DNA of 64,000 nucleotides from Desulfarculaceae bacterium (GCA_037443445.1 JBBIOJ010000007.1:69383-133382); one strand, 5' to 3'; numbered from the stretch's first letter, positions 17,455 through 63,663 are shown. The notes: generated by a model from the sequence alone, not told the origin. Made by a program: numbers and translations.

Positions 17455-17621
17455 ATCAGCCTGGATTTTTCAAGAGTAGTGGATCACCCAGGCTGAAAAA
17501 AGGGCGACTCTGATGGAAAGCACTCTGGCCGTGCAATGAGCAGCTTGTAGAGGCTTTGGGGTGAGAGCCCCCAACCTCATGGGCCTAGGCGAACAATCCG
17601 GGTTAGAGGTGAGGTGTCGAG

Positions 17622-20600
17622 GTGGGAAGTGGAGGCACAGGATATGTTCCGCTTTGGGTGAAGAGCCACTACTCCTTCCTGGAGGGAGCCAGCAGCCCGG
17701 GGGAGCTGGTGGAGGAGGCCAAACGCCTCGGCCTAAGCTCCATTGCGCTTACGGACAGGGACGGGCTCTACGGGGTGGTGCGCGCTTATGTGGCTGCCCG
17801 GGAGGCCGGTATCCATCTGGTGGTGGGGGCGCAGGTGAGTGTAGGGGAGGTGGAAAGCCGAGAGCCTGCAATCGGGAGTCCAGCTACTTCCCCCCTTGCC
17901 GCCCATCAATCCCAAGTAGTTCTATTGGCCATGGATCGGGAAGGTTATGCCAATCTTTGCAAGCTAATCACCCTGGGCAGGCTTCGCTCTCCCAAGGGCC
18001 GAAGTTTGGTGAGCTGGCAGGAGGTATGCCTGCACTCCAGGGGGCTCCTGGCAATGCTGGGCGGGGATGAAAGTGCCTTGGCTTCCAAGGCGGAGCCAGC
18101 CCCTATCCTCAACATGCTCAAAGATGCTTTCGGGGACAGGCTCTACGCGGCAGTGGCCAGGCACAAGAGGGCTGAAGAGAGGGATCAGGAGTACAGAGTA
18201 ATACTAAGGGCTCGAAAAAACTCCATTCCCTTGGTGGCGGCCCCCGAAGTGCTTTACCACACCCCCTCCAGACGTCCCCTGCAGGATGTGCTCACCTGCA
18301 TCAGAAACGGAGTGGCTCTGAGTGAGGCCGGGCGGTTAACGCGCCCCAATTCAGAATATGCGCTTCTGAGCCCCTTTTCCTTCCGAACCCTTTACCAGGA
18401 TCTTCCTGGAGCAGTGGAACGCACACTGGAGGTGGCCGAGCGCTGTAAATTTTCCCTGGAGGAAATCAGATACAGATACCCCTCAGAAAGGCTCCCGGAG
18501 GGGCTCACCTCCCAGCAGTGGCTCAGGGAACTGACCCTTAGGGGAGCACGGGAGCGCTATGGGGCCTCTGTCCCAGCGGAGGTGAGAGCCCAACTGGAGC
18601 GGGAGCTGGCTCTCATAGAGGAGCTGGACTACAGCGGCTATTTCCTCACCATGTGGGAGATAGTCAGGTTTTGTCGGGAACACTCCATCCTATGCCAGGG
18701 AAGGGGCTCTGCAGCCAACTCAGCGGTTTGTTACTGCCTCGGTATCACAGCCATAGACCCTGTGCGTATGGGGCTCTTGTTCGAACGTTTCATCTCCAAA
18801 GAGAGAGCAGAGCCGCCTGACATAGACCTGGACATCATGCATCAAAGACGGGAAGAGGTGATACAGCATGTGTACGAGCGCTACGGTCGAGACCATGCGG
18901 CCATGGTGGCCAATTTCATCCGGTACAGGCCCAAGATGGCCGTGCGGGACTTGGGGAAGGTGCTGGGGCTTCCCCGCACCAGCCTGGAGCGGTTGGCCAA
19001 GCTGCTTCCCCATCACGGGGAGATAATACCAGAGCATCTTCGCATGGCCGGCATGGACCCAAGTCTGCCCATTTCCCAACACCTAATCCGCCTGGGCTCG
19101 GAACTCCTGGATGTGCCGCGTCACCTCTCAATCCACCCCGGGGGATTCCTGCTGGGACACGAACCGGTTCACACTCTGGTGCCCATAGAGAGAGGCTCCA
19201 TGGAAGGCCGCACAGTCATCCAGTGGGACAAGGAGGACATAGAGGATTTGGGCCTCTTCAAGGTGGATCTGTTGGGCCTTGGGGCCTTGACTCATCTGGA
19301 TATTACCTTGCGCCTCCTGGAGAAACACCACGGGCTAAGTCTATCCATGGCCACCATCCCGGCTGAGGACTCTGCCACCTATGAGATGATCTCCAGGGGG
19401 GATACTGTGGGGGTGTTCCAGCTGGAAAGCAGGGCCCAAATGTCCATGCTGCCAAGGCTCAAGCCCAAGTGCTTCTACGACTTGGTGGTACAGATCAGCA
19501 TCATCAGGCCAGGGCCCATAACAGGAGGCATGGTTCACCCCTATCTGAGAAGGCGAAGCGGGCAGGAGCCCGTTGAGTATCCCCACGAGTGCTTGCGAGC
19601 TGTCTTGGAAAAAACCCTGGGGGTCCCCATCTTCCAGGAGCAGGTGATGAGGTTGGCCATGGTGGCTGCGGACTACAGCCCCGGAGAGGCGGACCAGCTT
19701 CGGCGGGACATGGCCGCCTGGAGAAGAGGGGGGCGCATGGGAAGGCACAGGGAGCGGCTGATCTCCAGGATGCTGGCCAAAGGAATTGAAAGGGAGTTTG
19801 CAGAGAGGGTCTTTCAACAGATCCAGGGTTTTGGGGAATACGGATTCCCAGAGTCCCACGCGGCCAGTTTCGCCCTTATAAGCTACGCCTCTGCCTGGCT
19901 CAGGCGTCACTGGCCAGCAGAGTTTGCATGCGCCCTATTGAATGCACAGCCCATGGGCTTTTACTCCCCGGCCACGATCATCGAGGATGCCAAGCGCCAC
20001 GGCATAGATATCAGGCCAGTCTCTGTAGTGCGCAGTTCTTGGGAGTGCAGCTTGGAACCCCTGGATGGAAAGGTTTGCCCTGGGGGGGAACAGCCGGAAG
20101 GGACCAAACCCGGCTTTGCTGTGCGCATGGGCCTGAGGTTCGTGAAAGGGCTGGGCAGGGGCCACTGGGAGCGTATTGTGGAGGCAAGAAATGTGGCCCC
20201 TTTTGCCTCCTTGGAGGATTTTGTCCAAAGGTGCGGGCTGGATCGGGAGGTGCTCTCGGCTCTGGCTCAGGCAGGAGCCCTGGAAGCCCTCCAGGAGGGA
20301 AGGAGGAACGCCCTTTGGGGAGTGCTGGGAGCCCCCAGAAGGCCCAGGTGTTCCATCCCTGTGAAAGATCGTGAAGCCAAAGCCTCTTTTGCGCCTCTTA
20401 GCGCCTTGGAGACAGTGATGTGGGATTACCGCACACAAGAACACAGCCCCCTGGCCCATCCCCTTGCAATGGTGAGGGAGGAACTAAGGAGAAGGGGTTT
20501 TCCTACAGCCCAGGAGATCTCCGGCATGGGCCAGGGCAGTAGAGTGCGTTATGCCGGACTTGTCATCTGTCGACAGCGCCCAGGCACGGCCAGAGGGGTT

Positions 20601-20819
20601 ACCTTCCTGACCTTGGAGGATGAGACCGGCTTTGTAAACGTGGTGGTCTGGCCCAGCCTCTACGTGAAGCACATGCCCCTTGTGAAGACCGCTCCTCTCT
20701 TGGGGGTATCCGGTACGCTTCAAGTGCAGGGGGAGGTGGTGAATCTGGTGGCCCGAAGCCTCTGGACACCGGGGGTCTCCCTTCAGAAGACCCACGGACC
20801 CAGCCGGGATTTCCAATGA
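17622..20819 (+). CDS. dnaE2: error-prone DNA polymerase III alpha-subunit paralog DnaE2 (ImuC)
   Basis: 1065 aa; PHP-domain N-terminus (KSHYSFLEGASSPGELVEEA) and Pol III alpha core motifs; GTG start with GAGGTG RBS. Confidence 0.85.
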   Translation: MGSGGTGYVPLWVKSHYSFLEGASSPGELVEEAKRLGLSSIALTDRDGLYGVVRAYVAAREAGIHLVVGAQVSVGEVESREPAIGSPATSPLAAHQSQVVLLAMDREGYANLCKLITLGRLRSPKGRSLVSWQEVCLHSRGLLAMLGGDESALASKAEPAPILNMLKDAFGDRLYAAVARHKRAEERDQEYRVILRARKNSIPLVAAPEVLYHTPSRRPLQDVLTCIRNGVALSEAGRLTRPNSEYALLSPFSFRTLYQDLPGAVERTLEVAERCKFSLEEIRYRYPSERLPEGLTSQQWLRELTLRGARERYGASVPAEVRAQLERELALIEELDYSGYFLTMWEIVRFCREHSILCQGRGSAANSAVCYCLGITAIDPVRMGLLFERFISKERAEPPDIDLDIMHQRREEVIQHVYERYGRDHAAMVANFIRYRPKMAVRDLGKVLGLPRTSLERLAKLLPHHGEIIPEHLRMAGMDPSLPISQHLIRLGSELLDVPRHLSIHPGGFLLGHEPVHTLVPIERGSMEGRTVIQWDKEDIEDLGLFKVDLLGLGALTHLDITLRLLEKHHGLSLSMATIPAEDSATYEMISRGDTVGVFQLESRAQMSMLPRLKPKCFYDLVVQISIIRPGPITGGMVHPYLRRRSGQEPVEYPHECLRAVLEKTLGVPIFQEQVMRLAMVAADYSPGEADQLRRDMAAWRRGGRMGRHRERLISRMLAKGIEREFAERVFQQIQGFGEYGFPESHAASFALISYASAWLRRHWPAEFACALLNAQPMGFYSPATIIEDAKRHGIDIRPVSVVRSSWECSLEPLDGKVCPGGEQPEGTKPGFAVRMGLRFVKGLGRGHWERIVEARNVAPFASLEDFVQRCGLDREVLSALAQAGALEALQEGRRNALWGVLGAPRRPRCSIPVKDREAKASFAPLSALETVMWDYRTQEHSPLAHPLAMVREELRRRGFPTAQEISGMGQGSRVRYAGLVICRQRPGTARGVTFLTLEDETGFVNVVVWPSLYVKHMPLVKTAPLLGVSGTLQVQGEVVNLVARSLWTPGVSLQKTHGPSRDFQ

Positions 20820-45792: not shown

Positions 45793-46824
45793 TCAACCTG
45801 GATGTTTGCCGATTTCGACACTGGAGGAGCCTCCCAGGTTTACTTCCAAGGGAGACTCTGCTGCCTCCCACCTGCTCTGGATCCTCAGATTCGGATCTGC
45901 CAAGGTGACCCTGGAGTCAGGGGGCACCGATCGGGTAAGCCAAACGTTGCCACCTATGATCGATCTGGCACCTATCACTGTGTTCCCTCCAAGAATGGTG
46001 GCGCCTGCGTAGATGATTACATCATCCTCTATGGTGGGATGCCTCTTGTACCCCCTGGCCATGGAGCCGTCCGCCTCCCTGCGTAGACTCAGGGCTCCGA
46101 GGGTCACCCCCTGATAAATCCGGACATTGTTGCCTATCTCGGTTGTCTCTCCTACGACAACACCTGTCCCGTGATCTATGAAGAAGTCGCTCCCGATGGT
46201 AGCCCCGGGGTGAATGTCTATGCCGGTCACCCTGTGGGCATACTCGGTCATGATCCTGGGCAACAGGGGTACTTCCTGGAGATGAAGCTCGTGGGCTATT
46301 CTATACACTGTCACGGCGAATATGCCGGGGTAGGAGAAGACTATCTCATCAAAGCTCCTGGCAGCAGGGTCCCCCTCATAGGCAGCTCGCACGTCTTTGG
46401 CCAGCATCTGGCGAAGTCTTGGAATCTTGGCCAGGAACTCAAGGGCTTCTTTCTGGCCTTTTTCAACGCAACGCACGCACATGCTGTCCAGACGGCGGCA
46501 CTCGTGCTGGATGCTCCTGGATATCTGAACCGATAGTTTGTCAAAAAGAGAGTTGACCTCAGTCCCTATGTGGTATTGCAAGTTCTTGCGATCCAGCTCT
46601 TGCCGGCCGAAATACCCCGGATACAGCAAATCCAACAGGTCCTTTAGTATCTCCACCACAGACTCCAGGGAAGGGATAAGGGCCGCATCTATGTGGTCAA
46701 TGCTCTCCGGCCCTGTGCAGCTCTCAACAATGCTCTCCACGATCTCCGGGAGCCTGGATCTATAGTCCCCTGTTCTCTCCATCACGGTCTTGCAGTTATC
46801 CCTGTCAGCTATGGGTTGGTTCAT
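45793..46824 (-). CDS. cysE: serine O-acetyltransferase
   Basis: N-terminal SATase domain plus a left-handed beta-helix hexapeptide repeat region (IHPGATIGSDFFIDHGTGVVVGETTEIGNNV...). Confidence 0.85.
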   Translation of the reverse strand: MNQPIADRDNCKTVMERTGDYRSRLPEIVESIVESCTGPESIDHIDAALIPSLESVVEILKDLLDLLYPGYFGRQELDRKNLQYHIGTEVNSLFDKLSVQISRSIQHECRRLDSMCVRCVEKGQKEALEFLAKIPRLRQMLAKDVRAAYEGDPAARSFDEIVFSYPGIFAVTVYRIAHELHLQEVPLLPRIMTEYAHRVTGIDIHPGATIGSDFFIDHGTGVVVGETTEIGNNVRIYQGVTLGALSLRREADGSMARGYKRHPTIEDDVIIYAGATILGGNTVIGARSIIGGNVWLTRSVPPDSRVTLADPNLRIQSRWEAAESPLEVNLGGSSSVEIGKHPG

Positions 46825-48114: not shown

Positions 48115-49860
48115 ATGGAAGAAAGGATCTGGCACAAGCATAAGTGGCCCGAAGGGGTGCCGTGGGATATCCAGGTTCCGGATGTTCCACTGTATGAGCT
48201 CTTGGAGGAGACGGTGCGCAGTTACGGTGACTTGACCTACACCATATTCCAGGACTCATCCCGCACTTTCCGGCAGGTCAACGAGATGGCAAACATGGTG
48301 GCCAATTTCCTGGTTTCCAAGGGTGTGAGAAAAGGGGACAGGGTGGCCATCTTCTTTCCCAACTTGCCCCAATACCCGATTCTGTTTTTCGGGATCCTCA
48401 AAAGCGGGGCCACATGCGTGACCTGCAATCCCATGTACACAGCAGGGGAGCTCAATTTTCAACTGAGGGACTCCGGGGCAAGAGGAGTCTTTGTGATGGA
48501 TCATCCCCAGTTCTATTCCACTGCCTGCAAGGCTGTGGAAGGCACCCAGGTGGAGTTTGTGGTGTACTGCAATGTAAAGCCTTTCCTTCCCACCCTGAAG
48601 GGCTTTCTGGGGGGGCTTCTGGGTAAGATCCCCAAGGCAGGGGCATACCAGGCGGGACACATCTCTCTGGAGCAGGCTCTCTCGGGGCAGTCTTCCAGCC
48701 CCCCCAGGGTATCCATGGATCCCAAGGAAGACCTGGCACTAATCCTGTACACAGGAGGCACCACCGGAGTTCCCAAGGGGGCTTGCCTGACCCACTCCAA
48801 CTTCATGGCCAACGTGCTGGCCTTGGAGGAATGGATGAGGGTGGAACCCGCCCCAGGAGAAAAGCCCAGGAAGCTGGAAAAGGGAGGGAAGCACTGTTTC
48901 ATGGGAGTCTTGCCATGGTACCACAGCTACGGTTTGACCCTGACCATGCTGAGTGCGGTGAGACTTGCTGCGCGCCTTGTATGCGTGCCGGACCCCAGGG
49001 CCGGGAACCCACCTTTCACGGAAGTGCTGAGGCTAATAGAGCATCACAAGGCTACCTTGCTCCATGCGGTGCCTACTCTGTACAGCGTTTTGGTGAACCA
49101 TCCGCTGGTCAAGAAGTTCGACCTGAGCTCCATAGTGGCCTGCGCCTCCGGGGCTGCTCCACTTCCCGTGGAGCTGGCCAGACAGTTCGAGGAGAAGACA
49201 GGAGCCGTGATCTTCGAAGGATACGGGCTTTCGGAAACATCCCCTGTGACTCACGTAAATCCCACCAACCGAAAGGACCGCAAGTTTGGCTCCATAGGAT
49301 TGCCCATCCCGGGCACTGACATAAAGATCCTGGATGTGGATACTGGAACCAAAGAGCTTCCCTTGGGAGAGGACGGGGAGATAGCAGTGAGCGGACCGCA
49401 GGTCATGAAGGGCTATTGGAACAGGCCAGAGGAAAACGAGCTGGTCTTCAGGGTCATGGACGGGAAGCGCTTTTTCCTGACCGGGGATATAGGCCACATG
49501 GATGAGGAGGGCTTCACCGTCATCACGGACCGCAAAAAGGACATGATAGATGTTGGGGGACTGAAGGCCTATCCCAGGGAAATCGAGGAGGTGCTTTACG
49601 GGCACCCCAAGGTGGCCAATGCAGCTGTGGTGGGGGTGCCAGACGAGAAATCAGGTCAGGCTGTAAAAGCCTTTATCCAGCTAAAGCCAGGCCAGACAGC
49701 CACGGCAGAGGAGATAATCGAATATTGCAGGGACAAGATGGCCGGATACAAGAGACCCAGGTACGTGGAGTTCAGAGAGGCCCTTCCCATGACAACTGTG
49801 GGAAAGATCCTGAGACGTCAGCTAAGAGATGAGGAATGGTCCAAGCTCAGGAAGACCTGA
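48115..49860 (+). CDS. long-chain fatty acid--CoA ligase (AMP-binding family)
   Basis: AMP-binding motifs YTGGTTGVPKGA, GYGLSETS, TGDIG; about 580 aa. Confidence 0.85.
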   Translation: MEERIWHKHKWPEGVPWDIQVPDVPLYELLEETVRSYGDLTYTIFQDSSRTFRQVNEMANMVANFLVSKGVRKGDRVAIFFPNLPQYPILFFGILKSGATCVTCNPMYTAGELNFQLRDSGARGVFVMDHPQFYSTACKAVEGTQVEFVVYCNVKPFLPTLKGFLGGLLGKIPKAGAYQAGHISLEQALSGQSSSPPRVSMDPKEDLALILYTGGTTGVPKGACLTHSNFMANVLALEEWMRVEPAPGEKPRKLEKGGKHCFMGVLPWYHSYGLTLTMLSAVRLAARLVCVPDPRAGNPPFTEVLRLIEHHKATLLHAVPTLYSVLVNHPLVKKFDLSSIVACASGAAPLPVELARQFEEKTGAVIFEGYGLSETSPVTHVNPTNRKDRKFGSIGLPIPGTDIKILDVDTGTKELPLGEDGEIAVSGPQVMKGYWNRPEENELVFRVMDGKRFFLTGDIGHMDEEGFTVITDRKKDMIDVGGLKAYPREIEEVLYGHPKVANAAVVGVPDEKSGQAVKAFIQLKPGQTATAEEIIEYCRDKMAGYKRPRYVEFREALPMTTVGKILRRQLRDEEWSKLRKT

Positions 49861-50791: not shown

Positions 50792-52762
50792 TCAACGCGC
50801 TTTGAGCAGGTTACGCAGCGTCTCCTTGAGATCCTTGCTTGAGGGCAGGGAGAGATGGAGTTTCCCTTCCCCTTTTTTCCTGATCCCGGCCAGATCAGGG
50901 TGGAACTTGGGATGGGAGAAGCTTCCATCCACCCAAAATGGTATAACCAAACCCGCGCCCTGCTGGCCCTCCTTCTGAGAGGCTAACTCTGGCTCCAGCC
51001 GAAAGTCCAGGGACCTCTCCCAAAGATTGGCTTGCCCTGCTGCCAGTACTTTCAAATCCTGGTTCTGCATGGAGGCTTTGGAAACTTTCAAGAGCCCCTC
51101 CGCCAATTCCAGGTGGGTCTCCAGGCGGGAAAAAGGGGTCCTGGGTGGGGTTCCATGTTTTTGTTCTTTGCTGCCACCCAGGCCCAGGGAACGTGATATC
51201 CTGGCCAGGTCTACCCCATTTATACTGCCTTCTGTTATCAGGAGCTCAGCCTCCCCCCTCCAGTTCAAGGCGGCCCTATCCAAGTCCCCTTCCCACGGCC
51301 CCTCCAGAAACCAGCTGCCACTCACCTCTCCTTCCAGGAAAGAGGTATTACCCAGCCTTTTTAAGAGGGGCCCCACCCGCACAGAGCGGGTGCTCAAATC
51401 CAAACGCATGTAAGGGGGCTGTGACTCATCCAACTTCACAAAGCCGCTGCCCCATAGTTCTCCCCCCTCTAGTCGAGCCCTTATTTCCTCAAGTTCCAGA
51501 ACCCCATCAGAGAACTTGTAAGAGGCTTGCAGCTCTTCCATGGGCTGGGATCTCAGAAGCACTCGATGGATTCTGGCCGAACCTTTCAAGGGAAACAAGA
51601 ATATGGCTTGACTCAAAGAAGGAGCTCGGGCCTTGGAATGCTCCCTGTGGCCTCGGGCTGATGTGGTGCTCTTTTCCTTGGAGGCGCTCGGCCTGCTCTG
51701 GTTAAGGTTCAACTCCAGCTCTTCCGTTTCCAAATTCAGCTCTAGGAACGGGTAGGTTCCCTTTGCCCAGGCCATGGAAAGCCGGATCAGGAGCTCGTCA
51801 GCCCTAAGCTCTCCTTGCTGAACCTGGAAAGAGCCTTTGGAGAAAAGAAGGTCTCCCCGGAAGGAGACCTGATTCCAGCTCTTGAGAAGGCCGCCTGCGG
51901 AACCCATTCCCATTGCCAGAAGAACTGGCTGAAGAGGGAAGGGCTCCACATTCACCTGCAGGTGGGCCTCGGGGGAGTGCTCCACGGTTTGGACCCGGCC
52001 CCTCAGGGATCCCCTGAGCCTCCCTCCCACCTGGCAGACAAGCTCAAGGAGCATGATCTTTTCGGCCGAGCCCTTTTCCTTGTGGGTCTTGAGGCTGCCT
52101 TCCATGGAAAAGCCGCGCCCCTGCAAGTCTCCCTGTGCCTTTATGGACTGTGATCCATCTGAGGAGGGTTCTGTTAACTGAAGGCTCAAGTTTCTCATGT
52201 GGGCCAGCCTCTGGTTGTGCTGGTCCACCCAAAGCAGGTCGGCTTCTGAAATCCCGAGTTGGGTGCCGGGCAAGGAGGCCAGGAAAGGGATTCCAAATCT
52301 TAATCTTGCAGTTCTGTGGGGTTGAGCAATATCTGATCCCTCGGGTCTTGTGCCCTTGCTCGGGGATTGCAGCGAGCTGAAATCTCCCTCCTCCCTGTCC
52401 ATCTCCAGGACCAAGTGCAGACCCTGGATGGCCACAATGCTTGGTTTCAGGCCCACATGCAAGATCTGGCCAAATCTGGCTTGGGCTTCCAAGGAGTCTA
52501 TTCTGAGCAGGTCCTTGACATTGGATCCATCTGGTGCCGGAACATGCAACCCCGAGAGCCGGAGCTTCAGGGCCGGCAGAACCGAGATGCTCACAGGCCC
52601 TTCTATCAAGACGGGCCGACCCAGACTTCGGGAAACCCATTGCTCAAGCTGCTGCCTGAAAATGGAGCTCTCAAGGAGCATGGGTATGAAGACCAGGATC
52701 GAAATAGCCAAAACTCCGCAAAGTGCCGCCAACACTACCATCAAGAAAGAGCCTTTGCTCAT
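50792..52762 (-). CDS. AsmA family protein (outer-membrane assembly / lipid transport-like)
   Basis: N-terminal TM anchor MVVLAALCGVLAISILVF followed by a long beta-rich region; 656 aa. Confidence 0.55.
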   Translation of the reverse strand: MSKGSFLMVVLAALCGVLAISILVFIPMLLESSIFRQQLEQWVSRSLGRPVLIEGPVSISVLPALKLRLSGLHVPAPDGSNVKDLLRIDSLEAQARFGQILHVGLKPSIVAIQGLHLVLEMDREEGDFSSLQSPSKGTRPEGSDIAQPHRTARLRFGIPFLASLPGTQLGISEADLLWVDQHNQRLAHMRNLSLQLTEPSSDGSQSIKAQGDLQGRGFSMEGSLKTHKEKGSAEKIMLLELVCQVGGRLRGSLRGRVQTVEHSPEAHLQVNVEPFPLQPVLLAMGMGSAGGLLKSWNQVSFRGDLLFSKGSFQVQQGELRADELLIRLSMAWAKGTYPFLELNLETEELELNLNQSRPSASKEKSTTSARGHREHSKARAPSLSQAIFLFPLKGSARIHRVLLRSQPMEELQASYKFSDGVLELEEIRARLEGGELWGSGFVKLDESQPPYMRLDLSTRSVRVGPLLKRLGNTSFLEGEVSGSWFLEGPWEGDLDRAALNWRGEAELLITEGSINGVDLARISRSLGLGGSKEQKHGTPPRTPFSRLETHLELAEGLLKVSKASMQNQDLKVLAAGQANLWERSLDFRLEPELASQKEGQQGAGLVIPFWVDGSFSHPKFHPDLAGIRKKGEGKLHLSLPSSKDLKETLRNLLKAR

Positions 52763-53463
52763 GAGATAGCCTTCTTGGGGCCGCGGCCGGAAGGTTCAAC
52801 CCCTTTGAAATTCCGCGAGCCTTCCACGTGTGTCTTGTGTAAAGGCTTGCTCCAGCTCTCTCCAAAGAACAGAGGAAGCTCTCCTATGCAGACCGGTCCC
52901 ACCCTGACCTGCCACCCGCCTTGTTCTTCCAGGGGACCCTTCAGCTGGGCTGCCAGCCCCGGGATTATCAGTTCCCTGTGGGAGAGCACCGATTCCAGCC
53001 TTGAATCAACAGCAGCCCTCAAGATCGCCTCAATAGTGAAGGTCTTGTAAATCATGGCCATGTCCACTGTGTGGCCCTTGGAGTCCACGAAAAGCACGTG
53101 AAAAGGGGCGTCGGTAGTGGAAAGCACTGCCAAGAGCACCTCCTGGGTCTGAACAGCATTGCCTGTCACAAGCACTGGAGAGTCCGCTCCGGGGGAGTTC
53201 ACCTCCAGTCTGCCTGTCTGGCCCGGAAGGGGATGTTGAGTCACATCCACCTGTGGGAGAAGCTGCCCCAGGGAGAGAAAAACCTCAAGGGCGTGGGTCC
53301 GGCCTCTGCCCAAGGAGGGGCATTCCTGAGCTCTTGCTTTTCCTGAGCGCAGCTTCTCGAGCCATTCCGAGCAAGATGAGTAACCGCACTTTCTGCAGTC
53401 CGCAGGGCTCAGGTAACGAAGAGGATCTGCCCTGTGGAGGTAAAGGTCTGCCTTCAGGCTCAC
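52759..53463 (-). CDS. Fe-S cluster domain protein with AcsC/RnfB-type CX2CX4CX16CP motif, function unknown
   Basis: LSPADCRKCGYSSCSEWLEKLRSGKARAQECP matches the N-terminal 4Fe-4S motif of the CFeSP large subunit and of RnfB; the C-terminal about 170 aa is unrecognised. Confidence 0.55.
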   Translation of the reverse strand: MSLKADLYLHRADPLRYLSPADCRKCGYSSCSEWLEKLRSGKARAQECPSLGRGRTHALEVFLSLGQLLPQVDVTQHPLPGQTGRLEVNSPGADSPVLVTGNAVQTQEVLLAVLSTTDAPFHVLFVDSKGHTVDMAMIYKTFTIEAILRAAVDSRLESVLSHRELIIPGLAAQLKGPLEEQGGWQVRVGPVCIGELPLFFGESWSKPLHKTHVEGSRNFKGVEPSGRGPKKAIS

Positions 53464-53632
53464 GGAGAACCTCTCTGTTTGGGCTGCCTTTCAGGTGCCC
53501 TTCTTGGGATGCTAGGTTCCTTAGCCTAAAGTGTCAAGAAGGCCCCGGAGCTTGACACCCGCAGGCGGTTTTCCTTAAGATCCGCCAGAGTGCCTGGGCA
53601 CTGCAATCACAGAGTGGCTGACCGGGTCTGAC

Positions 53633-54430
53633 ATGGGTGGTTTGATCACCTTGATCACGGATTTCGGAACCTCGGATTGGTACGTGGCTTCCATGAAGGG
53701 TGTGATCTTGAGGAAACATCCTGATTGCACCATAGTGGACATCACCCATGAAATCCCCCCCGGGCAACTGTTCCACGGGGCCTGGGTGCTGAGGCAGGCC
53801 TTCGGTCATTTCCCCATAGGCACGGTGCACCTGGTGGTGGTAGATCCGGGAGTTGGCACCTCCAGGGCTGCCCTGGCTGCCAGGGCCGGCGGCTTTTTCT
53901 TCCTGGGCCCGGACAATGGTGTGCTGAGTCTGGCCCTGGGGTTGCATCCCGAGGCGGAGGTCAGAAGCATCCAGAGCCAGGAGATAATGTTGCAGCCTGT
54001 GAGCTCAACTTTCCACGGCAGGGATGTGTTTGCGCCAGCGGCGGCCTACCTGGCAGCCGGTGGGGAATTGTCCGCTTTGGGACCAGAGCTGGAAGGCTGG
54101 GTCAGGCTAGAGCAGGCTGGTGTGAGCCGGGGAGGGGGGTTTGTGGAGGGACGGATTGTATATCTGGACCGTTTTGGAAACGGGATTACAAACATAGCCG
54201 AAGAGGACTTGAGGGGAATTCCCATGGGGAAAGGGCTGAGGATTCTGGTGGGTGACTTCCTGGTTCTGGATTCCCTCAAGAAAACCTACGGGGAGGCCCT
54301 TCCAGGTGAACCGCTGGCCTTGGTGGGCAGCTCTGGTTTCCTGGAGATTGCAGTGAGGGGAGCAAGCGCCAAGGACAAGCTGGGCCTTCAGGCCGGGGCA
54401 ACCGAGGTGGTAGTGCAGGTTATTCAATGA
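53633..54430 (+). CDS. SAM hydroxide adenosyltransferase family protein (SAM hydrolase, DUF62)
   Basis: N-terminal LITLITDFGTSDWYVASMKGVIL characteristic of the family; about 265 aa. Confidence 0.75.
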   Translation: MGGLITLITDFGTSDWYVASMKGVILRKHPDCTIVDITHEIPPGQLFHGAWVLRQAFGHFPIGTVHLVVVDPGVGTSRAALAARAGGFFFLGPDNGVLSLALGLHPEAEVRSIQSQEIMLQPVSSTFHGRDVFAPAAAYLAAGGELSALGPELEGWVRLEQAGVSRGGGFVEGRIVYLDRFGNGITNIAEEDLRGIPMGKGLRILVGDFLVLDSLKKTYGEALPGEPLALVGSSGFLEIAVRGASAKDKLGLQAGATEVVVQVIQ

Positions 54431-55365
54431 AATTGAGACCGCAGGACCTGGTGACCCTGGTCTATCTTGGGTGCGTGGGGTCCTTGATCATAATATTCCA
54501 TGGGCGGGTGGAGCAGGCCTGGTTCCATATTCTGCTCCACATGGCCTGGATAGGGGCAGTAATTGGGCTGGTCTGGAAGTCCCGCCAGAGCCGCTCCAGG
54601 TTTTGGTTACATCTGGGAACATGGTACCATCTCCTTAGCATCCCTCTGGCCTTCAGGGAACTTCACTACCTGGTCCACCCCATCAATCCCAGAGATCTGG
54701 ACGGGCTCTTTGTCAAATGGGATATGGCCTTGTTTGGCGTGCACCCAACGCTCTGGCTTGAAGGCATCATGCATCCTGTTCTCACAGAGTACTTACAGAT
54801 CGTTTACAGCACCTTTTATTTTCTTCCCATTGTGCTGGGTCTGCTGCTGTGGCGGAGGCGCAACTGGGAAGGTTTCCAAGCTGCAATGGTGGGGGTTGTG
54901 ACAGCCTTCTACCTTTCCTACCTGGGCTATTTTGCCTTTCCTGCCCTGGGGCCCCGTTTTGAGATAGCCCACCTTCAAAGCCGCCCTTTGGAGGGGCTTT
55001 GGTTGACTCACTGGATCCGGGACTGCCTGGACGAACTGGAGCTGTTGCAGCGGGATGCGTTCCCCAGTGGTCATGTGGGGGTGAGCCTCCTGGTGCTTTA
55101 TTATGCCTGGCGTTACTGCAAAGGAGCCTTTCCGCCTTATCTGTTGATCGTGGCAAGCCTTGTTTTCAGCACAGTGTACCTCCGTTATCACTACGTGGTG
55201 GATGTCCTGGCTGGGGTGTTGCTGGCTCTGGTCTCAGGCTGGCTGGCCCACCTGTTGAGGAGGCTGATGGGGGAGGATTTGTTACCCTGGGCTGTCTCCC
55301 AGCCCGAGACGGGAGAGAAATCCACAAAGGAGCTCCCTCAAAGGGGAAGGTCGTACACCCTGTAA
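54427..55365 (+). CDS. PAP2-family membrane phosphatase / phosphotransferase
   Basis: Multi-TM protein; PAP2 signature elements PSGH and RYHYVVDVLAG; overlaps the preceding stop (ATGA). Confidence 0.7.
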   Translation: MKLRPQDLVTLVYLGCVGSLIIIFHGRVEQAWFHILLHMAWIGAVIGLVWKSRQSRSRFWLHLGTWYHLLSIPLAFRELHYLVHPINPRDLDGLFVKWDMALFGVHPTLWLEGIMHPVLTEYLQIVYSTFYFLPIVLGLLLWRRRNWEGFQAAMVGVVTAFYLSYLGYFAFPALGPRFEIAHLQSRPLEGLWLTHWIRDCLDELELLQRDAFPSGHVGVSLLVLYYAWRYCKGAFPPYLLIVASLVFSTVYLRYHYVVDVLAGVLLALVSGWLAHLLRRLMGEDLLPWAVSQPETGEKSTKELPQRGRSYTL

Positions 55366-56459
55366 GTCTTGTAACGGGTAGCCCCTATGGCTTCCAAAGG
55401 CCGGATCATCGCATGGTTGTCCTCCAGGATCCATGAGAACTCTCCGCGCTTGTAGCCCTTCTTGATGCCTTCCTTGAAGGTTTCGAGATACAAGATCCCG
55501 TCTATTCCCATTCTTCGGTATCCTTGGGCCACTCCCAGCAAGAGAACGCGAACCTGATCGATCTTCTTGAAGTGGTACATCAGCTTTATGAAACCCGTGG
55601 GGAAAAGCCTCCCGTTTATTTTCTTGAGAGCCTGATTGATGTCCGGCAGGGTTAGGGAGAAGCCCACTATCTTGTCCTGCACCTCTGCAAAAAAAACCAG
55701 ATCAGGATCCAGAATCCTCTTCAGTTCAGAGGCCATATGGTCGATCTCGGCCTCGGTCATGGGCACAAAACCCCAGTTCCGCTCCCAGGCCGACTCGTAA
55801 ACGGACTTGAAGCGCAGTATCTCCTCCTTGAGTTCGTCCATGCGCAGCTTTCGAAGTTTGACCCTATTCTTCTGCTTCAACCTGTCGGCCAGTCTGTAAA
55901 GGCGTTGGGGCATTTCCTGTGCAGTGCGGATAAAGGCGTAGAGGTCTTTTTCTTTTAGAAATCCGTAAGCCTCCAGAAGTTGAGCATAGTATGGCGGATT
56001 GTAAGGCATCAGTATCATGGGGCTTTCCTGGAAGCCTTCCACCAGTAACCCGATTTCCTCATTGGTGGAGAAACTAGCAGGCCCCCTCATCACCTCCATG
56101 CCCCTTTGGCGAAGCCAGGAAGAGGCCTTGTCCAGGAGGGCTTGAGAGACCTCCTCGTCCTGGAAGGATTCGAACAGTCCGAAAAACCCCACCCGGTCCT
56201 GATGGAATCTGTTGTGGTTGTGGTTCACCAAGGCGGCTATCCTGCCTGCCGGCTTCCCATCCCGCAGGGCCAGGAAAAGGGCTATGTCAGCGTGTTGGAA
56301 AAAGGGGTTTTTCTTGGGATCAATGAAGGCCTTTCGTTCCATGAGAAGAGGGGGGACCCAAAGAGGATCTCCCCTGTACACCTCCCAGGGGAACTTTACA
56401 AAGGCGTCTCTTTGCCCCCGGTTTAAGACTTGCTCCACTCGCACAGACGGCCTTGGCAT
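55338..56459 (-). CDS. large GNAT-family N-acyltransferase (candidate bacterial ceramide synthase-like)
   Basis: About 374 aa GNAT-like protein directly downstream of, and co-oriented with, the Spt-like gene. Confidence 0.5.
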   Translation of the reverse strand: MPRPSVRVEQVLNRGQRDAFVKFPWEVYRGDPLWVPPLLMERKAFIDPKKNPFFQHADIALFLALRDGKPAGRIAALVNHNHNRFHQDRVGFFGLFESFQDEEVSQALLDKASSWLRQRGMEVMRGPASFSTNEEIGLLVEGFQESPMILMPYNPPYYAQLLEAYGFLKEKDLYAFIRTAQEMPQRLYRLADRLKQKNRVKLRKLRMDELKEEILRFKSVYESAWERNWGFVPMTEAEIDHMASELKRILDPDLVFFAEVQDKIVGFSLTLPDINQALKKINGRLFPTGFIKLMYHFKKIDQVRVLLLGVAQGYRRMGIDGILYLETFKEGIKKGYKRGEFSWILEDNHAMIRPLEAIGATRYKTYRVYDLPL

Positions 56460-56535
56460 GGCTTTCCTCCCGGGCAGGCCCGAGGGTGCATCCACCCCAG
56501 AGCAGCTGAACTGAATCCCTGGTTTCCAAGGTCCT

Positions 56536-57720
56536 CTAGGAAATAACTCCCAGCTCCTTTCCCACCTTTTGAAAGGCTTCCAGGACTCTGTCCAGTTGGG
56601 AGTCCGTATGGGTGGCCATGTAACTGGTGCGCAGCAAGGCCCTTCCCGGAGGCACGGCCGGGCTTCGCACCGGGTTCACGAAGACCCCTTCTTCCAAGAG
56701 CCTTTTCCAGAAAATGAAAACCTTCATGTCATCCCCTATGATGATGGGGATGATGGGGGTCTGGGTGTTTCCTATGTCCAGCCCCATGGACCTGTACTCG
56801 CGGTGCATCCTGCGGGTGATTTCCCAGAGCCTCTCCCTTCGCTCTGGCTCTTTTTCCATTATGTCCAAAGAAGCGAGGCATGCCGCTATGGAGGCCGGGG
56901 GCATGGAGGCACTGAATATGAGAGCCCGGGATATGTGCTTTATGTAGTCTATCACCTCGGCCTTGGCCGAGACGAATCCGCCCAAGGAGGCAAAAGACTT
57001 GCTGAAGGTGCCCATGATGAGGTCCACCTGGTCTGTGATGCCGAAATAGGAGGCTGTGCCGCTTCCTTTTTCCCCCAGCACTCCTATGGAATGGGCGTCG
57101 TCCACCATGAGGCGGGCCCCGAATTCCCTGCACAAGGCCGCGATCTCAGGAAGAGGGGCAATATCCCCTTCCATGCTGAAAACCCCGTCCACCACCACCA
57201 GCCTTCCTGTACGCGGATTGGCTTTTTCCAAGGCCCTTCGAAGTCCTGCCATGTCATTGTGACGAAACCTTATGGTCCTTCCGTGGGAGAGCTGGCAGCC
57301 GTCCACTATGCTGGCGTGGTCATCATAGTCTATTATTACCGTGTCATGGCGGCCTACCAAAGCTGAAATGGTGCCCAGGTTTGTCTGGAAGCCGGTGCTG
57401 AAAACCAGGGCAGCCTCCTTGCCTGTGAACTTGGCAAGCCTTTCTTCCAACTGCACGTGCAGCTCTATGGTGCCATTCAGGAAACGTGAACCCGTGCAGC
57501 TGGTCCCAAAACGTCTCAGGGCTTCTGCTGCAGCCTCTTTGACCTTGGGATGGGTGGTAAGCCCCAGGTAGTTGTTGGAACCGATCATTATCACACGTCG
57601 GCCGTTGATGATGACCTCCGTGTCCTGCTGCGATTCTATGGGAGTGAAGTAAGGGTAATATCCAGAAGCCCTGGCTTGCTCCGCCTGGGTGAATTTCCAG
57701 CACTTCTCGAAGATGTCCAT
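56536..57720 (-). CDS. alpha-oxoamine synthase family PLP enzyme (serine palmitoyltransferase-like / 8-amino-7-oxononanoate synthase-like)
   Basis: PLP-lysine motif [14 protein letters not shown](I)G, DDHAS; 394 aa. Spt is favoured over BioF by the neighbouring genes. Confidence 0.7.
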
Positions 57721-58022
57721 CAGCCACTCCTTCCAGGGGGCAGGAGCGCGGGGCCCTTGCCTTAGGATCTTTCACAGCTCAGAATGTTGCTCACCCGGGC
57801 CTGCCTCACAGGGCAACCGCTCCAGTGAGGCTAGGTGGGGTAAGCTGGTGAATTCTATTCAAGGGCTGAAACTTTGTCAACGAGGGGGCTGCTCAGGAGG
57901 ATCTGCTGGGACTGAAAGACCCGCAGGCTCAACCCCTCAAGAAAGGCTTTTTTCTCAGGCATCCCTGATGCCAAGGGCTTGCAAGCTCGGGTTTCAGGCA
58001 GGCCAAAAAAGGGGGATCGGCT

Positions 58023-59003
58023 GTGAGGGCTCTTGTGACGGGGGCTACAGGCTTTATAGGAAGCCATCTGGTGGAGGCGCTCTTGGCAGATGGACACCAG
58101 GTGCGGATCTTGAGCAGGCAGACCAGCGACCTTATCTGGATCCGGGATCTGGATGTGGAGCGGGTCACAGGGGATCTGCAGGAGGAGGTGTCCTTGGAGA
58201 AGGCGGTACAAGGCATGGAATGGGTCTTTCACCTGGCAGGGCTCACCAAGGCCAGGAGGCTCCACTCTTACATGAAGGCCAATACCTTGGGCACCTTCAA
58301 CTTGCTCAGGGCATGCACCGCGACCGAGAAACCTCCCCAAAGGGTGGTACTCTTGAGTTCCCTGGCTGCCTGGGGCCCCAGTTCACCTTCCTGCCCCAGG
58401 GGGGAGGCAGAACCCTGCTCCCCTGTGAGCCATTACGGGTTGAGCAAGGCCAGGGCCGAGGAAGTGGCCTGTTCTTTCGCCTCCAGGTTACCTTTGGTGA
58501 TCCTGAGACCCACTGCTGTGTACGGTCCTAGGGACAAGGACGTGCTGGCTTTTTTCCGTATGGTCAAGAAAGGCTGGTTCCTGAGGTTGGGGACCCAGGA
58601 GCGATACATCTGCATGATCCACGTGAAGGACCTGGTCAGGGCCATCCTTCTTGCTGCAAAGGCGCCTGTGCAATCAGGATCGGTGTACCCCGTTTCGGAC
58701 GGGGAAGTGCACACCTGGAGTGAGGTGGCCCAGATGCTGGCAAGGATAATGGGGGTGCGTGTAAGAAGCCTGAGTCTTCCTCTGGCCTTGGCCTGGAGTG
58801 CTGCCCTGGTTTCCGAGGCTGTCTCCTGGGTGACGGGCCTGCCCCCTCTTTACAACAGAGAAAAGCTCAAGGAGATGATTCAGCCGGGCTGGACCTGCAG
58901 CATAGAGAAGAGCAAGACCGACCTGGGTTTCGAACCAGCCATCTGCCTGGAAAAAGGGCTGATGGAAACTTATCTCTGGTATCAGAGGATGGGTTGGATA
59001 TAG
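58023..59003 (+). CDS. NAD-dependent epimerase/dehydratase family protein (candidate ceramide/3-ketosphinganine reductase-like)
   Basis: ALVTGATGFIGSHLVEALL Rossmann motif; YxxxK (YGLSK); divergent from the Spt-like gene. Confidence 0.65.
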   Translation: MRALVTGATGFIGSHLVEALLADGHQVRILSRQTSDLIWIRDLDVERVTGDLQEEVSLEKAVQGMEWVFHLAGLTKARRLHSYMKANTLGTFNLLRACTATEKPPQRVVLLSSLAAWGPSSPSCPRGEAEPCSPVSHYGLSKARAEEVACSFASRLPLVILRPTAVYGPRDKDVLAFFRMVKKGWFLRLGTQERYICMIHVKDLVRAILLAAKAPVQSGSVYPVSDGEVHTWSEVAQMLARIMGVRVRSLSLPLALAWSAALVSEAVSWVTGLPPLYNREKLKEMIQPGWTCSIEKSKTDLGFEPAICLEKGLMETYLWYQRMGWI

Positions 59004-59099: not shown

Positions 59100-59912
59100 C
59101 TATCCTACAGACTCCTCCTCCAGGCCCTCCCCGTCGGTGGCTGCCTGCTTTTGGCTACTGGGTTTCCCAAAGAGGACCGCAACCCAGATACCCAGCTCGT
59201 AGAGAACGCACAGGGGCACGGCCATGAGACACTGCGACACAGGATCCGGTCCCGGGGTCAGAATGGCTGAGGCCATGAATATGACGGGGATGGCGTACCT
59301 TCGTCCCTTCCTGAGTGTTCTGGGGTGAACAATCCCCAGCTTTGCCAGAAAAAAAATGAAGATGGGAAGTTCGAAGACTATCCCGAAGGCCAGGAGCAAG
59401 AAGGTTGCAAAGCTAAGGTACTCCTTCATGGAGGGCAGGGGTTTTATGAACTCTCCGCTGAAGCCCACAAAAAACTGAAAGCCATAAGGGAATACCACGT
59501 AGTAACCGAATACGGCTCCTCCCAGAAAGAAAAAGCTTGCAAAGAAGATGAAGGGTAAAGCAAGCCTCCTTTCCTGTGGATAAAGCCCCGGGGAAATGAA
59601 AGCCCAGAGCTGGTACAAGATCACCGGCACTGAGATCATCAGACCCGCAAAAAAAGAAGCCTTCAGATAAACCATGAAAGCCTCCAGCAGGCCTGTGAAG
59701 ATGAGGTGCCTGTCTTGGGGGGGGAGGACCTTGAGCAGGGGTTCTGATATGAACCTGAAGATCTCCTCCTTGAATACGTAAGCCACAACGGTCCCCACCA
59801 GGACCGAAAGCAAACACACAATAAGACGGTAGCGAAGTTCCTCCAGATGTTCTATGAAGGAGACTTTCTCGTCAGGCTTGAGTCTTCTCGGGAACTTTGG
59901 CTTCAGCCTCAT
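59100..59912 (-). CDS. tatC: twin-arginine translocase subunit TatC
   Basis: Six TM helices; FIEHLEELRYRL N-terminal motif typical of TatC. Confidence 0.85.
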   Translation of the reverse strand: MRLKPKFPRRLKPDEKVSFIEHLEELRYRLIVCLLSVLVGTVVAYVFKEEIFRFISEPLLKVLPPQDRHLIFTGLLEAFMVYLKASFFAGLMISVPVILYQLWAFISPGLYPQERRLALPFIFFASFFFLGGAVFGYYVVFPYGFQFFVGFSGEFIKPLPSMKEYLSFATFLLLAFGIVFELPIFIFFLAKLGIVHPRTLRKGRRYAIPVIFMASAILTPGPDPVSQCLMAVPLCVLYELGIWVAVLFGKPSSQKQAATDGEGLEEESVG

Positions 59913-60195
59913 GGGGGCCCGTGGGCTCCTCCTGCTTTTTTTCTTCCGAGGGCTGGCTGGGGACTTGCCCCTGTGCAGCTTCTTGTTGCTGGCTTGCAGG
60001 GGTGGCTTCGGGTCTTTCAGGTTCCTCCATGATGGTAGCCAGATCTATCTGCCCCTTGAGCTCCTCGCCTGCGCGTCTGAGCTGTATGAAGGCCCTGCCC
60101 AGGGTCCTGGCTATTTCCGGAAGCCTCTTGGGCCCTATGAAAACCAAGGCCACCACAAGGACTATTAGGATTTCCTGCATGCCCAGGTCGAACAT
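59872..60195 (-). CDS. tatA: twin-arginine translocase subunit TatA/TatB
   Basis: MFDLGMQEILIVLVVALVFIGPKRLPE single-TM helix plus amphipathic helix; upstream of tatC. Confidence 0.8.
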   Translation of the reverse strand: MFDLGMQEILIVLVVALVFIGPKRLPEIARTLGRAFIQLRRAGEELKGQIDLATIMEEPERPEATPASQQQEAAQGQVPSQPSEEKKQEEPTGPHEAEAKVPEKTQA

Positions 60196-60437
60196 GGTCG
60201 CCTCTTTCTTGGCAGAGCCCGGAGCCACAAAAAAACATCAGTTCCAAGCATGGTACGTCCTGCCTGAAAAACCTGTCAAGGAGGCCTTCCTGAGGGAAGG
60301 GGAGCGTGCTAAAGTCTGCTCCCGAGAGAGCTTTGAAGAGGGTTTGCTCAAAAGGGCATAGGCCCCTCTTGAGCCCTTTTTTTGCCAAGGGCCGAGAAAG
60401 CCCTGTTCATTTTCCTGAGACCTCTGGAGGGTGGGAA

Positions 60438-62517: not shown

Positions 62518-63663
62518 ATGCGTAAGAACTATCTCTTGACCCCGGGCCCCACCCCCATCTCTCCATCCACGCTCTTGACCATGGCCCAACCCATAATCCA
62601 CCACCGCACAGGCGAATACGGGGCCATCTTTCAGGAGGTGAGAGAGGGGCTCAAGTATCTGTTCCAGACCCAACACGAGGTTCTGCTATTTAGCTCTTCA
62701 GGCACCGGGGCAATGGAAGGGGCCGTGACCAACACCTTGAGCCCAGGGGATAAAGCCCTTGTGGTGAGAGGAGGAAAGTTCGGGGAAAGATGGGAGGAGA
62801 TCTGCCTGGCCTACGGAGTGCTGCCGGTTATCCTGGACGTGGAGTGGGGAAGGGCGGTGAGGCCAGAAGATGTGGCCAAAGCCCTGGAGGCAGATCCACA
62901 GATAAGAGCGGTCTTGGTTCAAGCCAGTGAGACTTCCACAGGAGTGCGTCATCCGGTCAAGGAGATAGGAGAGATAGTCTCCAGGTACCCTGAAACCATC
63001 CTCATAGTGGATGCCATAACTGGCATCGGGGTCTTCGACCTCCAGACAGACGCCTGGGGCTTGGACATAGTGGTTGCAGGCTCCCAAAAAGCGGTAATGC
63101 TTCCCCCGGGACTGGCTTTTGCCTCTGTGAGCCCCAAGGCCTGGGAATTTGTGGAAAAGGCCCGGCTACCCCGCTTCTATTTCGATTTCAAGAAAGAGCT
63201 GGCTTCGGCCCGAAAGAACCAAAATGCTTATACTCCCGCAGTCTCACTCATAGTGGGGTTGAGGGAAGTGCTCCAGAGGATACGAGAGGAGACTCTGGAG
63301 GGGATCTTTGAACGGCATTCCAGGATGGCCAGGGCCACCCGTGAGGCTGTGAAGGCCCTGGGCCTGGAACTGCTGGCGCCAGAGTCGCCCAGCGAAGCGG
63401 TCACAGCAGTGAAGGCTCCTGGGGGCGTGGACGCAGGGCGCATTACGGGCCACCTGTGGGATCGGTACGGGGTTCGAGTGGCTGGCGGCCAGGGCCACCT
63501 GAAAGGAAAAATTTTCAGGATAGCGCACATGGGTTTCATGGATGCCTTTGACGTTATCATCGGCATTTCCTCATTGGAGTTGACCCTTCGAGACCTGGGT
63601 CTGCCGGTGGAACCAGGGAAAGGAGTGGGGGTGGCCCAGGAGATCCTGGCGGGAAGGGTCTGA
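62518..63663 (+). CDS. class V aminotransferase (serine-pyruvate/phosphoserine aminotransferase-type)
   Basis: MRKNYLLTPGPTPI start typical of AGXT/SerC-like class V enzymes; PLP Lys context VAGSQKAV. Confidence 0.75.
   Translation: MRKNYLLTPGPTPISPSTLLTMAQPIIHHRTGEYGAIFQEVREGLKYLFQTQHEVLLFSSSGTGAMEGAVTNTLSPGDKALVVRGGKFGERWEEICLAYGVLPVILDVEWGRAVRPEDVAKALEADPQIRAVLVQASETSTGVRHPVKEIGEIVSRYPETILIVDAITGIGVFDLQTDAWGLDIVVAGSQKAVMLPPGLAFASVSPKAWEFVEKARLPRFYFDFKKELASARKNQNAYTPAVSLIVGLREVLQRIREETLEGIFERHSRMARATREAVKALGLELLAPESPSEAVTAVKAPGGVDAGRITGHLWDRYGVRVAGGQGHLKGKIFRIAHMGFMDAFDVIIGISSLELTLRDLGLPVEPGKGVGVAQEILAGRV

Follow-up and report, generated by a model that had tools for sequence, protein, structure and literature searches.

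The 64,000-nucleotide stretch of Desulfarculaceae bacterium DNA analysed here (GCA_037443445.1 JBBIOJ010000007.1:69383-133382; termed the window) contains, at 53.6 to 59.0 kb, a locus that is probably devoted to the synthesis of bacterial ceramides and phosphosphingolipids. As judged from homology, an alpha-oxoamine synthase (AOS), a GNAT acyltransferase and a short-chain dehydrogenase/reductase (SDR) very probably form the ceramide core, and a PAP2_3 membrane protein has about an even chance of performing a fourth step, head-group transfer. A three-gene ceramide pathway has been defined genetically and biochemically in Caulobacter crescentus (Olea-Ozuna 2021; Stankeviciute 2022) and comprises Spt (CC_1162), the bacterial ceramide synthase bCerS or “aca” (CC_1154) and the reductase CerR or “epi” (CC_1164). 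The four genes had been proposed as a ceramide cluster in an earlier sequence-only reading of the window, and gene calls and Pfam matches bear out their positions and orientations. The interval holds the following features:

53633-54430, plus strand, DUF62/(R)-S-adenosylmethionine (SAM) hydrolase-like gene (Pfam SAM_HAT_N and SAM_HAT_C)
54427-55365, plus strand, PAP2_3 integral membrane protein, 312 residues, about eight transmembrane segments (PF14378)
55338-56459, minus strand, tandem-GNAT N-acyltransferase of the CC_1154/YghO (bCerS) family by homology, 373 residues
56536-57720, minus strand, Spt-like AOS, 394 residues (NCBIfam, PDB and tree)
57852-57880, minus strand, sigma-70-like promoter match, TTGACA-17-TAGAAT, 11 of 12 positions (consensus scan only)
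58023-59003, plus strand, extended SDR (epimerase/dehydratase family), CerR-like, 326 residues (Pfam Epimerase and a cluster hidden Markov model [HMM])

The five genes of this interval run in three transcription directions. AOS is the first gene of an AOS-GNAT unit, with GNAT 76 bp downstream on the same strand, and the SDR gene is divergent from it, as first proposed, across a spacer of 302 bp. Within this spacer, some 130 nt ahead of the AOS start codon, sits the putative sigma-70-like promoter, a pattern match only. Another promoter match (TTGACA-18-TAAGAT) occurs at 53552-53581, near the DUF62 gene. No riboswitch or other RNA was detected in the cluster leader at Rfam gathering scores, and there is no rRNA within the window. 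The PAP2_3 and GNAT genes are convergent, and the overlap of their 3' ends seen in the sequence-only reading amounts to 28 bp and is also present in a close relative (L090). The stop codon of DUF62 and the start codon of PAP2_3 overlap by 4 bp (ATGA). The mechanical GNAT open reading frame (ORF), 55338-56495, opens with GTG at 56495; because homologues are of 373 residues and the ATG at 56459 is preceded, at a distance of 7 nt, by a GGAGG ribosome-binding site, the product is taken to start at 56459.

The synthase groups with Spt rather than with BioF or Kbl, in line with the sequence-only reading, and NCBIfam scores, PDB scores, a neighbor-joining tree and active-site residues agree on this. 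In addition to a Pfam Aminotran_1_2 match (213 bits), it scores 579.7 bits with the NCBIfam SerpalmtaseCFB model (NF047600) and 444.1 bits with betaproteobacterial Spt (NF047599), versus 420 for TIGR01825, 411 for BioF and 404 for Kbl. Since both Spt scores lie below the equivalog cutoffs (640 and 500 bits, respectively), the enzyme is regarded as Spt-like and outside the curated Cytophaga-Flavobacterium-Bacteroides (CFB) and betaproteobacterial clades. Its best PDB match is Sphingobacterium multivorum SPT (467 bits), followed by Thermus BioF/Kbl (329 bits), Sphingomonas-type SPTs (about 315 to 326 bits), Kbl (273 to 285 bits), cysteate acyltransferases (260 to 273 bits) and BioF (about 225 bits). 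The margin of Spt models and structures over those of BioF, Kbl, ALAS, CqsA and cysteate acyltransferase is 135 to >200 bits.

The window enzyme aligns gap-free with S. multivorum SPT (PDB 3a2b and 8guh) across 386 residues, 54% of which are identical. Fifteen residues surrounding pyridoxal 5'-phosphate (PLP) and the bound serine have been named in the structure of that enzyme (PMC10196870), and 14 of them are identical in the window AOS, in which the PLP (Schiff-base) lysine is K241 (Lys244), H135 corresponds to His138, and D207 and H210 are kept. The sole exception is Met271, replaced by Ile, which touches the substrate through its main chain; the window enzyme differs from S. multivorum SPT in this residue and in scoring below the CFB equivalog cutoff. 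All contacts to the serine side chain and carboxylate (Asn52, Gly80, Ser81, His138 and Ser243) are identical. The clade of the AOS, for which a phylogenetic check had been proposed, was examined in a neighbor-joining tree that combined 51 GNAT-adjacent AOS proteins with Sphingomonas Spt, the yghO-cluster AOS of E. coli, and BioF and Kbl of E. coli. The window AOS belongs to the GNAT-linked clade, the sister of which is formed by the Sphingomonas and E. coli Spt proteins; Kbl and BioF branch outside, and the window AOS does not cluster with either of them. Its predicted product, from L-serine and acyl-CoA, is 3-ketosphinganine.

The acyltransferase had been described as unusually large, at about 374 residues. 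It is indeed large, and the product called here has 373 residues; the AlphaFold model (predicted local distance difference test [pLDDT] score of 86.7) places two GNAT domains in one chain, a tandem arrangement that explains the size. The Pfam signal is a weak Acetyltransf_1 match, and a sequence search of the PDB returned nothing below an E value of 0.3, which indicates that there is no solved bCerS structure. Solved tandem GNATs (MshD, glucosamine N-acetyltransferase, MAB_4324, FemX and N-myristoyltransferase) share the two-domain chain, with Foldseek E values of 1e-14 to 1e-8 and template modeling (TM) scores of 0.4 to 0.6, but they have only 9 to 14% identity and different substrates.

A translated search of plasmid records retrieved full-length GNAT relatives with 35 to 43% identity from sphingolipid loci of E. 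coli (yghO), Sphingomonas, Streptomyces, Pseudomonas, Roseomonas and Rubrobacter. The window protein is 37% identical to the Sphingomonas GNAT (E = 2e-79; 365 of 373 residues) and 35% identical to E. coli YghO over its full length, and scores 438.7 bits with an HMM built from six reference-locus GNATs. In E. coli, the neighbors of yghO encode a fatty acyl-AMP ligase, an epimerase-family protein, an acyl carrier protein (ACP), an AOS and LptF/LptG paralogues, and Pseudomonas veronii has an E. coli-type arrangement around the GNAT relative. The Sphingomonas parapaucimobilis locus reads NAD(P)H-binding protein, ACP, AOS and, further along, LptF, LptG, desaturase and N-acetyltransferase, the last being the GNAT relative; this is the canonical cerR-acp-spt...lptF-lptG...GNAT order. 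Streptomyces and Rubrobacter carry AOS-GNAT-reductase operons, and Roseomonas carries LptF/G, desaturase and GNAT. A side observation concerns the annotation of this last group: the bCerS-type GNAT of Roseomonas gilardii pRo-1 (L094, 5980-7137) and of 12 other Roseomonas plasmids is labelled “dATP pyrophosphohydrolase” in RefSeq, which looks like a propagated misannotation, because the gene lies in an LptF/G-sterol desaturase-GNAT locus.

Padilla-Gomez et al. listed CC_1154, yghO (ECD_02850) and Swit_3908 under “aca”, and CC_1164 and ECD_02852 under “epi”, as genes required for dihydroceramide formation (PMC9386255). By homology, therefore, the window GNAT belongs to the family of the genetically defined Caulobacter ceramide synthase, and the proposal that it is of the bacterial ceramide synthase type is upheld by its full-length similarity to YghO and the Sphingomonas protein. 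It is predicted to N-acylate a long-chain base using acyl-CoA.

The SDR has a Pfam Epimerase match of 126.9 bits, a GxxGxxG motif at residue 7 and YxxxK at residue 138. As extended SDRs all look alike, a discriminating HMM was built from five proteins chosen solely by their adjacency to a YghO-type GNAT (E. coli, Sphingomonas, Streptomyces, Pseudomonas and Rubrobacter). The window SDR scores 287.8 bits with this model, compared with 161 bits for the best NCBI curated family (HpnA), and its best PDB entry scores 114 bits. It is 31 to 39% identical over its full length to the cluster reductases of the five genera, and alignments reveal a common C-terminal segment, K-[LI]-x-E-[LM]-x4-W-[TS]. The better match to cluster-linked reductases than to curated families agrees with the earlier designation as CerR-like. 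Among other genomes, the nearby SDRs of L001, L011 and L047 are only 24 to 27% identical to the window SDR, which suggests a different reductase subfamily in Zixibacteria, the phylum of L001. Genes for TatC and TatA/B (59100-60201, minus strand) lie directly downstream of the window SDR gene in convergent orientation, and are recorded here given the periplasmic location reported for Caulobacter CerR, the export route of which is undefined. Across the 80 loci of other genomes surveyed below, TatC turns up close to the cluster in just 2.

Linkage of the genes is conserved across distant bacteria. When the GNAT alignment was used to scan the species genomes of GTDB, 80 loci holding a GNAT homologue were obtained and searched with the window proteins; only 49 of these loci have at least 3 kb on both sides, and many of those that lack the other cluster genes are short contigs. 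The loci include Zixibacteria, Eisenbacteria, Gemmatimonadota, Myxococcota, Bacteroidota, Ignavibacteria, Acidobacteria, Planctomycetota, Calditrichota and Chloroflexota. An AOS is found near the GNAT homologue in 55 of the 80 loci and directly upstream on the same strand in 54. A reductase scoring at least 100 bits is nearby in 41, located downstream and co-directional in 22 and upstream and divergent, as in the window, in 12. A PAP2_3 homologue lies near the GNAT in 19 loci, never without an AOS, and all four genes are present in 17. The grouping of the genes is far beyond chance.

Two Eisenbacteria loci (L004 and L010) have a co-directional AOS-GNAT-SDR-PAP2_3 operon, and the window arrangement recurs in L021, in L084 (with the SDR upstream on the same strand), in a Tectimicrobiota locus (L100) and in the close relatives L090 and L091. 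In Myxococcus dinghuensis (L041, 3242-7987, minus strand), an operon divergent from AOS-GNAT-SDR encodes an MMPL/sterol-sensing-domain lipid transporter, a PAP2_3 protein of 378 residues and a second Aminotran_1_2 protein of 428 residues, all of them candidates for the export of myxobacterial sphingolipids and for their head-group step.

Other loci showed features of their own. In Zixibacteria (L001, CP070839.1, 5885-11154), an unannotated ORF of 221 residues lies between AOS and GNAT. In a locus of Rubrobacter radiotolerans plasmid 1 (L096, 4698-10290) that adjoins CRISPR-associated genes, an AOS-GNAT-oxidoreductase operon is followed by an LTA-synthase-family (sulfatase-fold) gene, with no PAP2_3 gene, and the LTA-synthase-family protein may be an alternative head-group transferase. 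In Thermoflexus hugenholtzii (L002/L003, 7033-10384), the GNAT gene lies between a DAGK_cat/YegS-type lipid kinase gene and an MFS transporter gene, with no AOS within 8 to 10 kb. A nearby AOS is likewise missing in L017, L022 and several Anaerolineae, spirochaete, Cloacimonadota and Aminicenantes loci. These genomes either have the genes at scattered sites or use the GNAT on another substrate.

The fourth protein matches PAP2_3 (PF14378), presumably the family named after Aur1/Ipt1 in InterPro, with 79.7 bits against a gathering score of 27, and the match covers profile positions 11 to 189 of 190. Across 35 homologues, PAxGPRF, RDAFPSGH and STVYLRYHYxxD show little or no variation, the parts PSGH and RYHYxxD, with S214-G215-H216, H255 and D259, are invariant, and the C1 lysine of PAP2 phosphatases is missing. 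In a Foldseek search with the structural model (pLDDT of 90.1), the only PDB matches with E values below 1e-3 were the AUR1 structures 9vj4 and 9ivc (E = 2e-4; TM scores of 0.54 to 0.63; about 294 columns), and PgpB, SMSr and LpxE trail with E values of about 0.04. The positive-inside rule applied to the model helices predicts eight transmembrane segments, with both termini cytoplasmic and the catalytic loops periplasmic. The suggestion that this PAP2 protein has the fold of sphingolipid head-group transferases thus holds at the level of the Pfam family and the modelled fold, both of which are AUR1-like. Yeast AUR1 and Bacteroides BT_1522 share with it the PAP2_3 family and the His-His-Asp catalytic motifs; AUR1 is its best structural match, yet identity is only 17%.

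BT_1522, an AUR1 homologue, is an established inositol-phosphoceramide synthase needed for phosphoinositol-dihydroceramide in Bacteroides, and is a precedent for PAP2_3-family enzymes that act on bacterial ceramides; in the literature searched, the Bacteroides BT_1522 work was the only work found on head-group enzymes of the PAP2 type for bacterial sphingolipids. The window protein is not a member of the BT_1522 equivalog. One of its homologues is named inositol phosphorylceramide synthase by NCBI. As no inositol-synthesis genes occur near the window cluster, the head group may not be phosphoinositol but phosphoethanolamine or phosphoglycerol. The PAP2_3 clade found beside spt-bcerS-cerR, which is distinct from the BT_1522 equivalog, occurs in the window lineage, Eisenbacteria, Gemmatimonadota, Acidobacteria, Tectimicrobiota and Myxococcota. 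It is tentatively proposed, at slightly less than an even chance, that this clade represents a general bacterial ceramide phosphotransferase of the periplasmic face, i.e., a ceramide-phosphoethanolamine, -phosphoglycerol or -phosphoinositol synthase.

In the proposed pathway, the soluble PLP enzyme (56536-57720) would join L-serine and a long-chain acyl thioester to form 3-ketosphinganine, a step suggested by strong homology. The acyl donor is probably acyl-CoA, because no gene for a dedicated ACP or acyl-ACP synthetase is linked and because the AOS is of the Sphingobacterium/Bacteroidota type. Family membership and synteny suggest that the tandem GNAT (55338-56459) would then N-acylate the long-chain base from acyl-CoA, and dihydroceramide would be formed when the SDR (58023-59003) reduces the 3-keto group at the expense of NAD(P)H. 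Which of N-acylation and keto reduction comes first is disputed even in Caulobacter and is not readable from sequence. In the fourth and least certain step, the PAP2_3 protein (54427-55365) may move a phospho-alcohol from phosphatidylethanolamine, phosphatidylglycerol or phosphatidylinositol to the C1 hydroxyl of ceramide; by analogy with AUR1 and sphingomyelin synthases, diacylglycerol would be released. The His-His-Asp site is predicted to lie on the periplasmic face, the outer side of the inner membrane. The AOS-GNAT pair and the reductase gene would be read from their shared divergent spacer, and PAP2_3 would be read convergently behind an unrelated DUF62 gene.

The Caulobacter pathway and its E. 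coli BL21 and Sphingomonas counterparts have the same three enzyme families in one locus, and the window proteins are 35 to 37% (GNAT, to YghO and the Sphingomonas GNAT) and 31% (SDR, to the E. coli and Sphingomonas reductases) identical to their counterparts. Unlike these systems, the window lacks a dedicated ACP (AcpR), an acyl-ACP synthetase (AasR) and LptF2/LptG2 paralogues, and has a PAP2_3 gene attached instead. Furthermore, its AOS is of the Sphingobacterium/Bacteroidota type and not of the “Rhodobacteria” type. In Bacteroidota, the three ceramide genes are dispersed (PMC11334938), whereas they are clustered in the window. Spt-like/bCerS/CerR clusters have also been predicted in Black Sea metagenome-assembled genomes of 38 phyla (Ding et al. 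2024, PMC11334938); these are loci of the same kind, from uncultivated and mostly anaerobic bacteria, and were recognised by the same three homologies and co-localisation.

Several observations weigh against the reading of the locus as a ceramide and phosphosphingolipid cluster. Ceramide production is a prediction from the genes; the AOS falls short of the CFB equivalog cutoff; and homology to the Caulobacter enzymes (CCNA_01212/CCNA_01222) was traced through their E. coli and Sphingomonas counterparts. The SDR shows no N-terminal signal peptide and its Rossmann motif begins at residue 7, while Caulobacter CerR is reported to be periplasmic. Some GNAT homologues (Thermoflexus, Anaerolineae and spirochaetes) have no AOS within 10 kb. 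For the PAP2_3 protein, the PDB sequence profile ranks PgpB (24 bits) slightly over AUR1 (15 bits), both being weak; the score with the Bacteroides phosphoinositol-dihydroceramide synthase model (NF052609) is 22.3 bits, against a cutoff of 480; and of the four homologues sampled, two are not linked to an Spt gene and two are linked to cluster genes.

Some of these points would fit a locus in which the ceramide core is correctly identified and the PAP2_3 protein is an ordinary lipid-phosphate phosphatase, with phosphatidylglycerophosphate, undecaprenyl pyrophosphate, lipid A 1-phosphate or ceramide-1-phosphate as substrate. The sequence profile matches PgpB-type phosphatases at least as well as AUR1, homologues are annotated as phospholipid phosphatases, half of the sampled homologues are unlinked to Spt, and the gene is co-transcribed in the window with the unrelated DUF62 gene. 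Phosphatases and AUR1 are separated by fold comparison and not by the PAP2_3 sequence profile, and by fold only inositol phosphorylceramide synthases match below 1e-3. Set against a phosphatase role, in addition, are the Pfam match across the full domain, the missing C1 lysine typical of phosphatases, the NCBI name of one homologue and the recurrence of PAP2_3 in or beside AOS-GNAT-SDR operons of several phyla, always together with an AOS in the 80 loci. A phosphatase is the less likely of the two identities for the protein.

A head-group transferase would also require a C1 hydroxyl on its acceptor, which bears on a further possibility, that the same three enzymes make an N-acylated amino lipid not derived from serine: a 1-deoxyceramide (from alanine), a lipid with a glycine-derived base or a capnine-type sulfonolipid (from cysteate). 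Alanine and glycine can be used by SPT enzymes, with low efficiency (PMC10196870), and 1-deoxyceramides and sulfono-1-deoxyceramides dominate parts of an anoxic water column and have been attributed to anaerobes with Spt-like genes; the position of the AOS below the Spt equivalog cutoff is in keeping with such a product. This is nonetheless improbable, as 1-deoxy bases have no C1 hydroxyl, cysteate acyltransferases score some 200 bits less than SPT with the window enzyme, and every serine-contact residue is kept. The large size and commonness of all four Pfam families and the automated annotations (aminotransferase, N-acetyltransferase, epimerase/dehydratase and phosphatase) might suggest that a BioF/Kbl-type synthase, a housekeeping acetyltransferase and a sugar-nucleotide epimerase merely lie side by side by chance, without a common pathway. 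This reading is effectively refuted by the conserved AOS-GNAT and SDR linkage in many phyla, and the AOS resembles Spt far more closely than it does BioF or Kbl.

Genes further from the cluster had been cited as possible pathway context:

48115-49860, acyl-CoA ligase (FadD)
62518-63663, plus strand, class-V aminotransferase, BhcA-like
from 63699, plus strand, SerA (phosphoglycerate dehydrogenase) fragment

The ligase is present as described. Of the serine-biosynthesis genes, the SerA fragment stands, and the aminotransferase is BhcA-like (341 bits, cutoff of 650) and not a canonical SerC. The role of the ligase and serine genes as context is not sustained, their synteny being confined to close relatives: together with AsmA, TatC/TatA and DUF62, they are syntenic in L090 and L091 (50 to 95% protein identity), and the nearest public relative is GCA_037481695.1. 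In tblastn queries over the first 89 loci fetched (L001 to L089), FadD, DUF62 and AsmA were absent and TatC gave only two matches. The acyl-CoA ligase, AsmA and TatC were rejected as parts of the system on this distribution, and the serine genes were rejected as well. The window FadD has no match to the E. coli cluster ligase at E values below 1e-10. The DUF62 gene, which scores 207 bits with the NCBIfam (R)-SAM hydrolase model and so falls short of the equivalog cutoff (350), is physically in the PAP2_3 transcription unit, given the 4-bp stop/start overlap by which the two genes are translationally coupled; its pairing with PAP2_3 occurs only in L090 and L091 and is therefore probably incidental, and the gene is probably outside the pathway. 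The ligase, serine, AsmA, Tat and DUF62 genes neither support nor weaken the ceramide reading.

Several serine-related genes near the cluster are found in this lineage only. A serine O-acetyltransferase-like gene (45793-46824, minus strand) encodes 343 residues with a long N-terminal extension and scores 159 bits with the EpsC model (cutoff of 150). The AsmA-family (lipid-transport-like) gene (50792-52762, minus strand) is only 50% identical to its L090 counterpart, versus 70 to 95% for neighboring genes, and overlaps by 4 bp a gene at 52759-53463 (minus strand). The product of the latter (234 residues) has an RnfB-type Fe-S motif and a CdhD/HgcA-like corrinoid domain, an odd partner for AsmA. 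Elsewhere, 15970-20819 (plus strand, possibly from 14692) holds an ImuB-like gene (IMS family, 494 residues) followed by one for a DnaE2-type DNA polymerase III alpha of 1,065 residues, an arrangement that resembles an imuA-imuB-dnaE2 mutagenesis cassette.

Both the pathway and its broad distribution have been published before, and the window locus adds one more example. The link between ceramide genes and an AUR1-like PAP2_3 protein is not mentioned in the literature searched, and a text search of the Black Sea study (PMC11334938) gave no mention of AUR1, inositol or phosphoethanolamine. The recurrent PAP2_3 link is reasonably regarded as a modest new and testable lead to the head-group step, and its practical value is that of a candidate for a step to which, outside Bacteroides, no enzyme is assigned in the literature searched. 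The analysis adds a well-supported ceramide locus for an uncultivated, apparently anaerobic, diderm lineage, and accords with recent work in which sphingolipids are seen as common among bacteria and not limited to Bacteroidota, sphingomonads and myxobacteria. If the PAP2_3 protein is a ceramide phosphotransferase, many uncultivated anaerobic phyla would make phosphosphingolipids.

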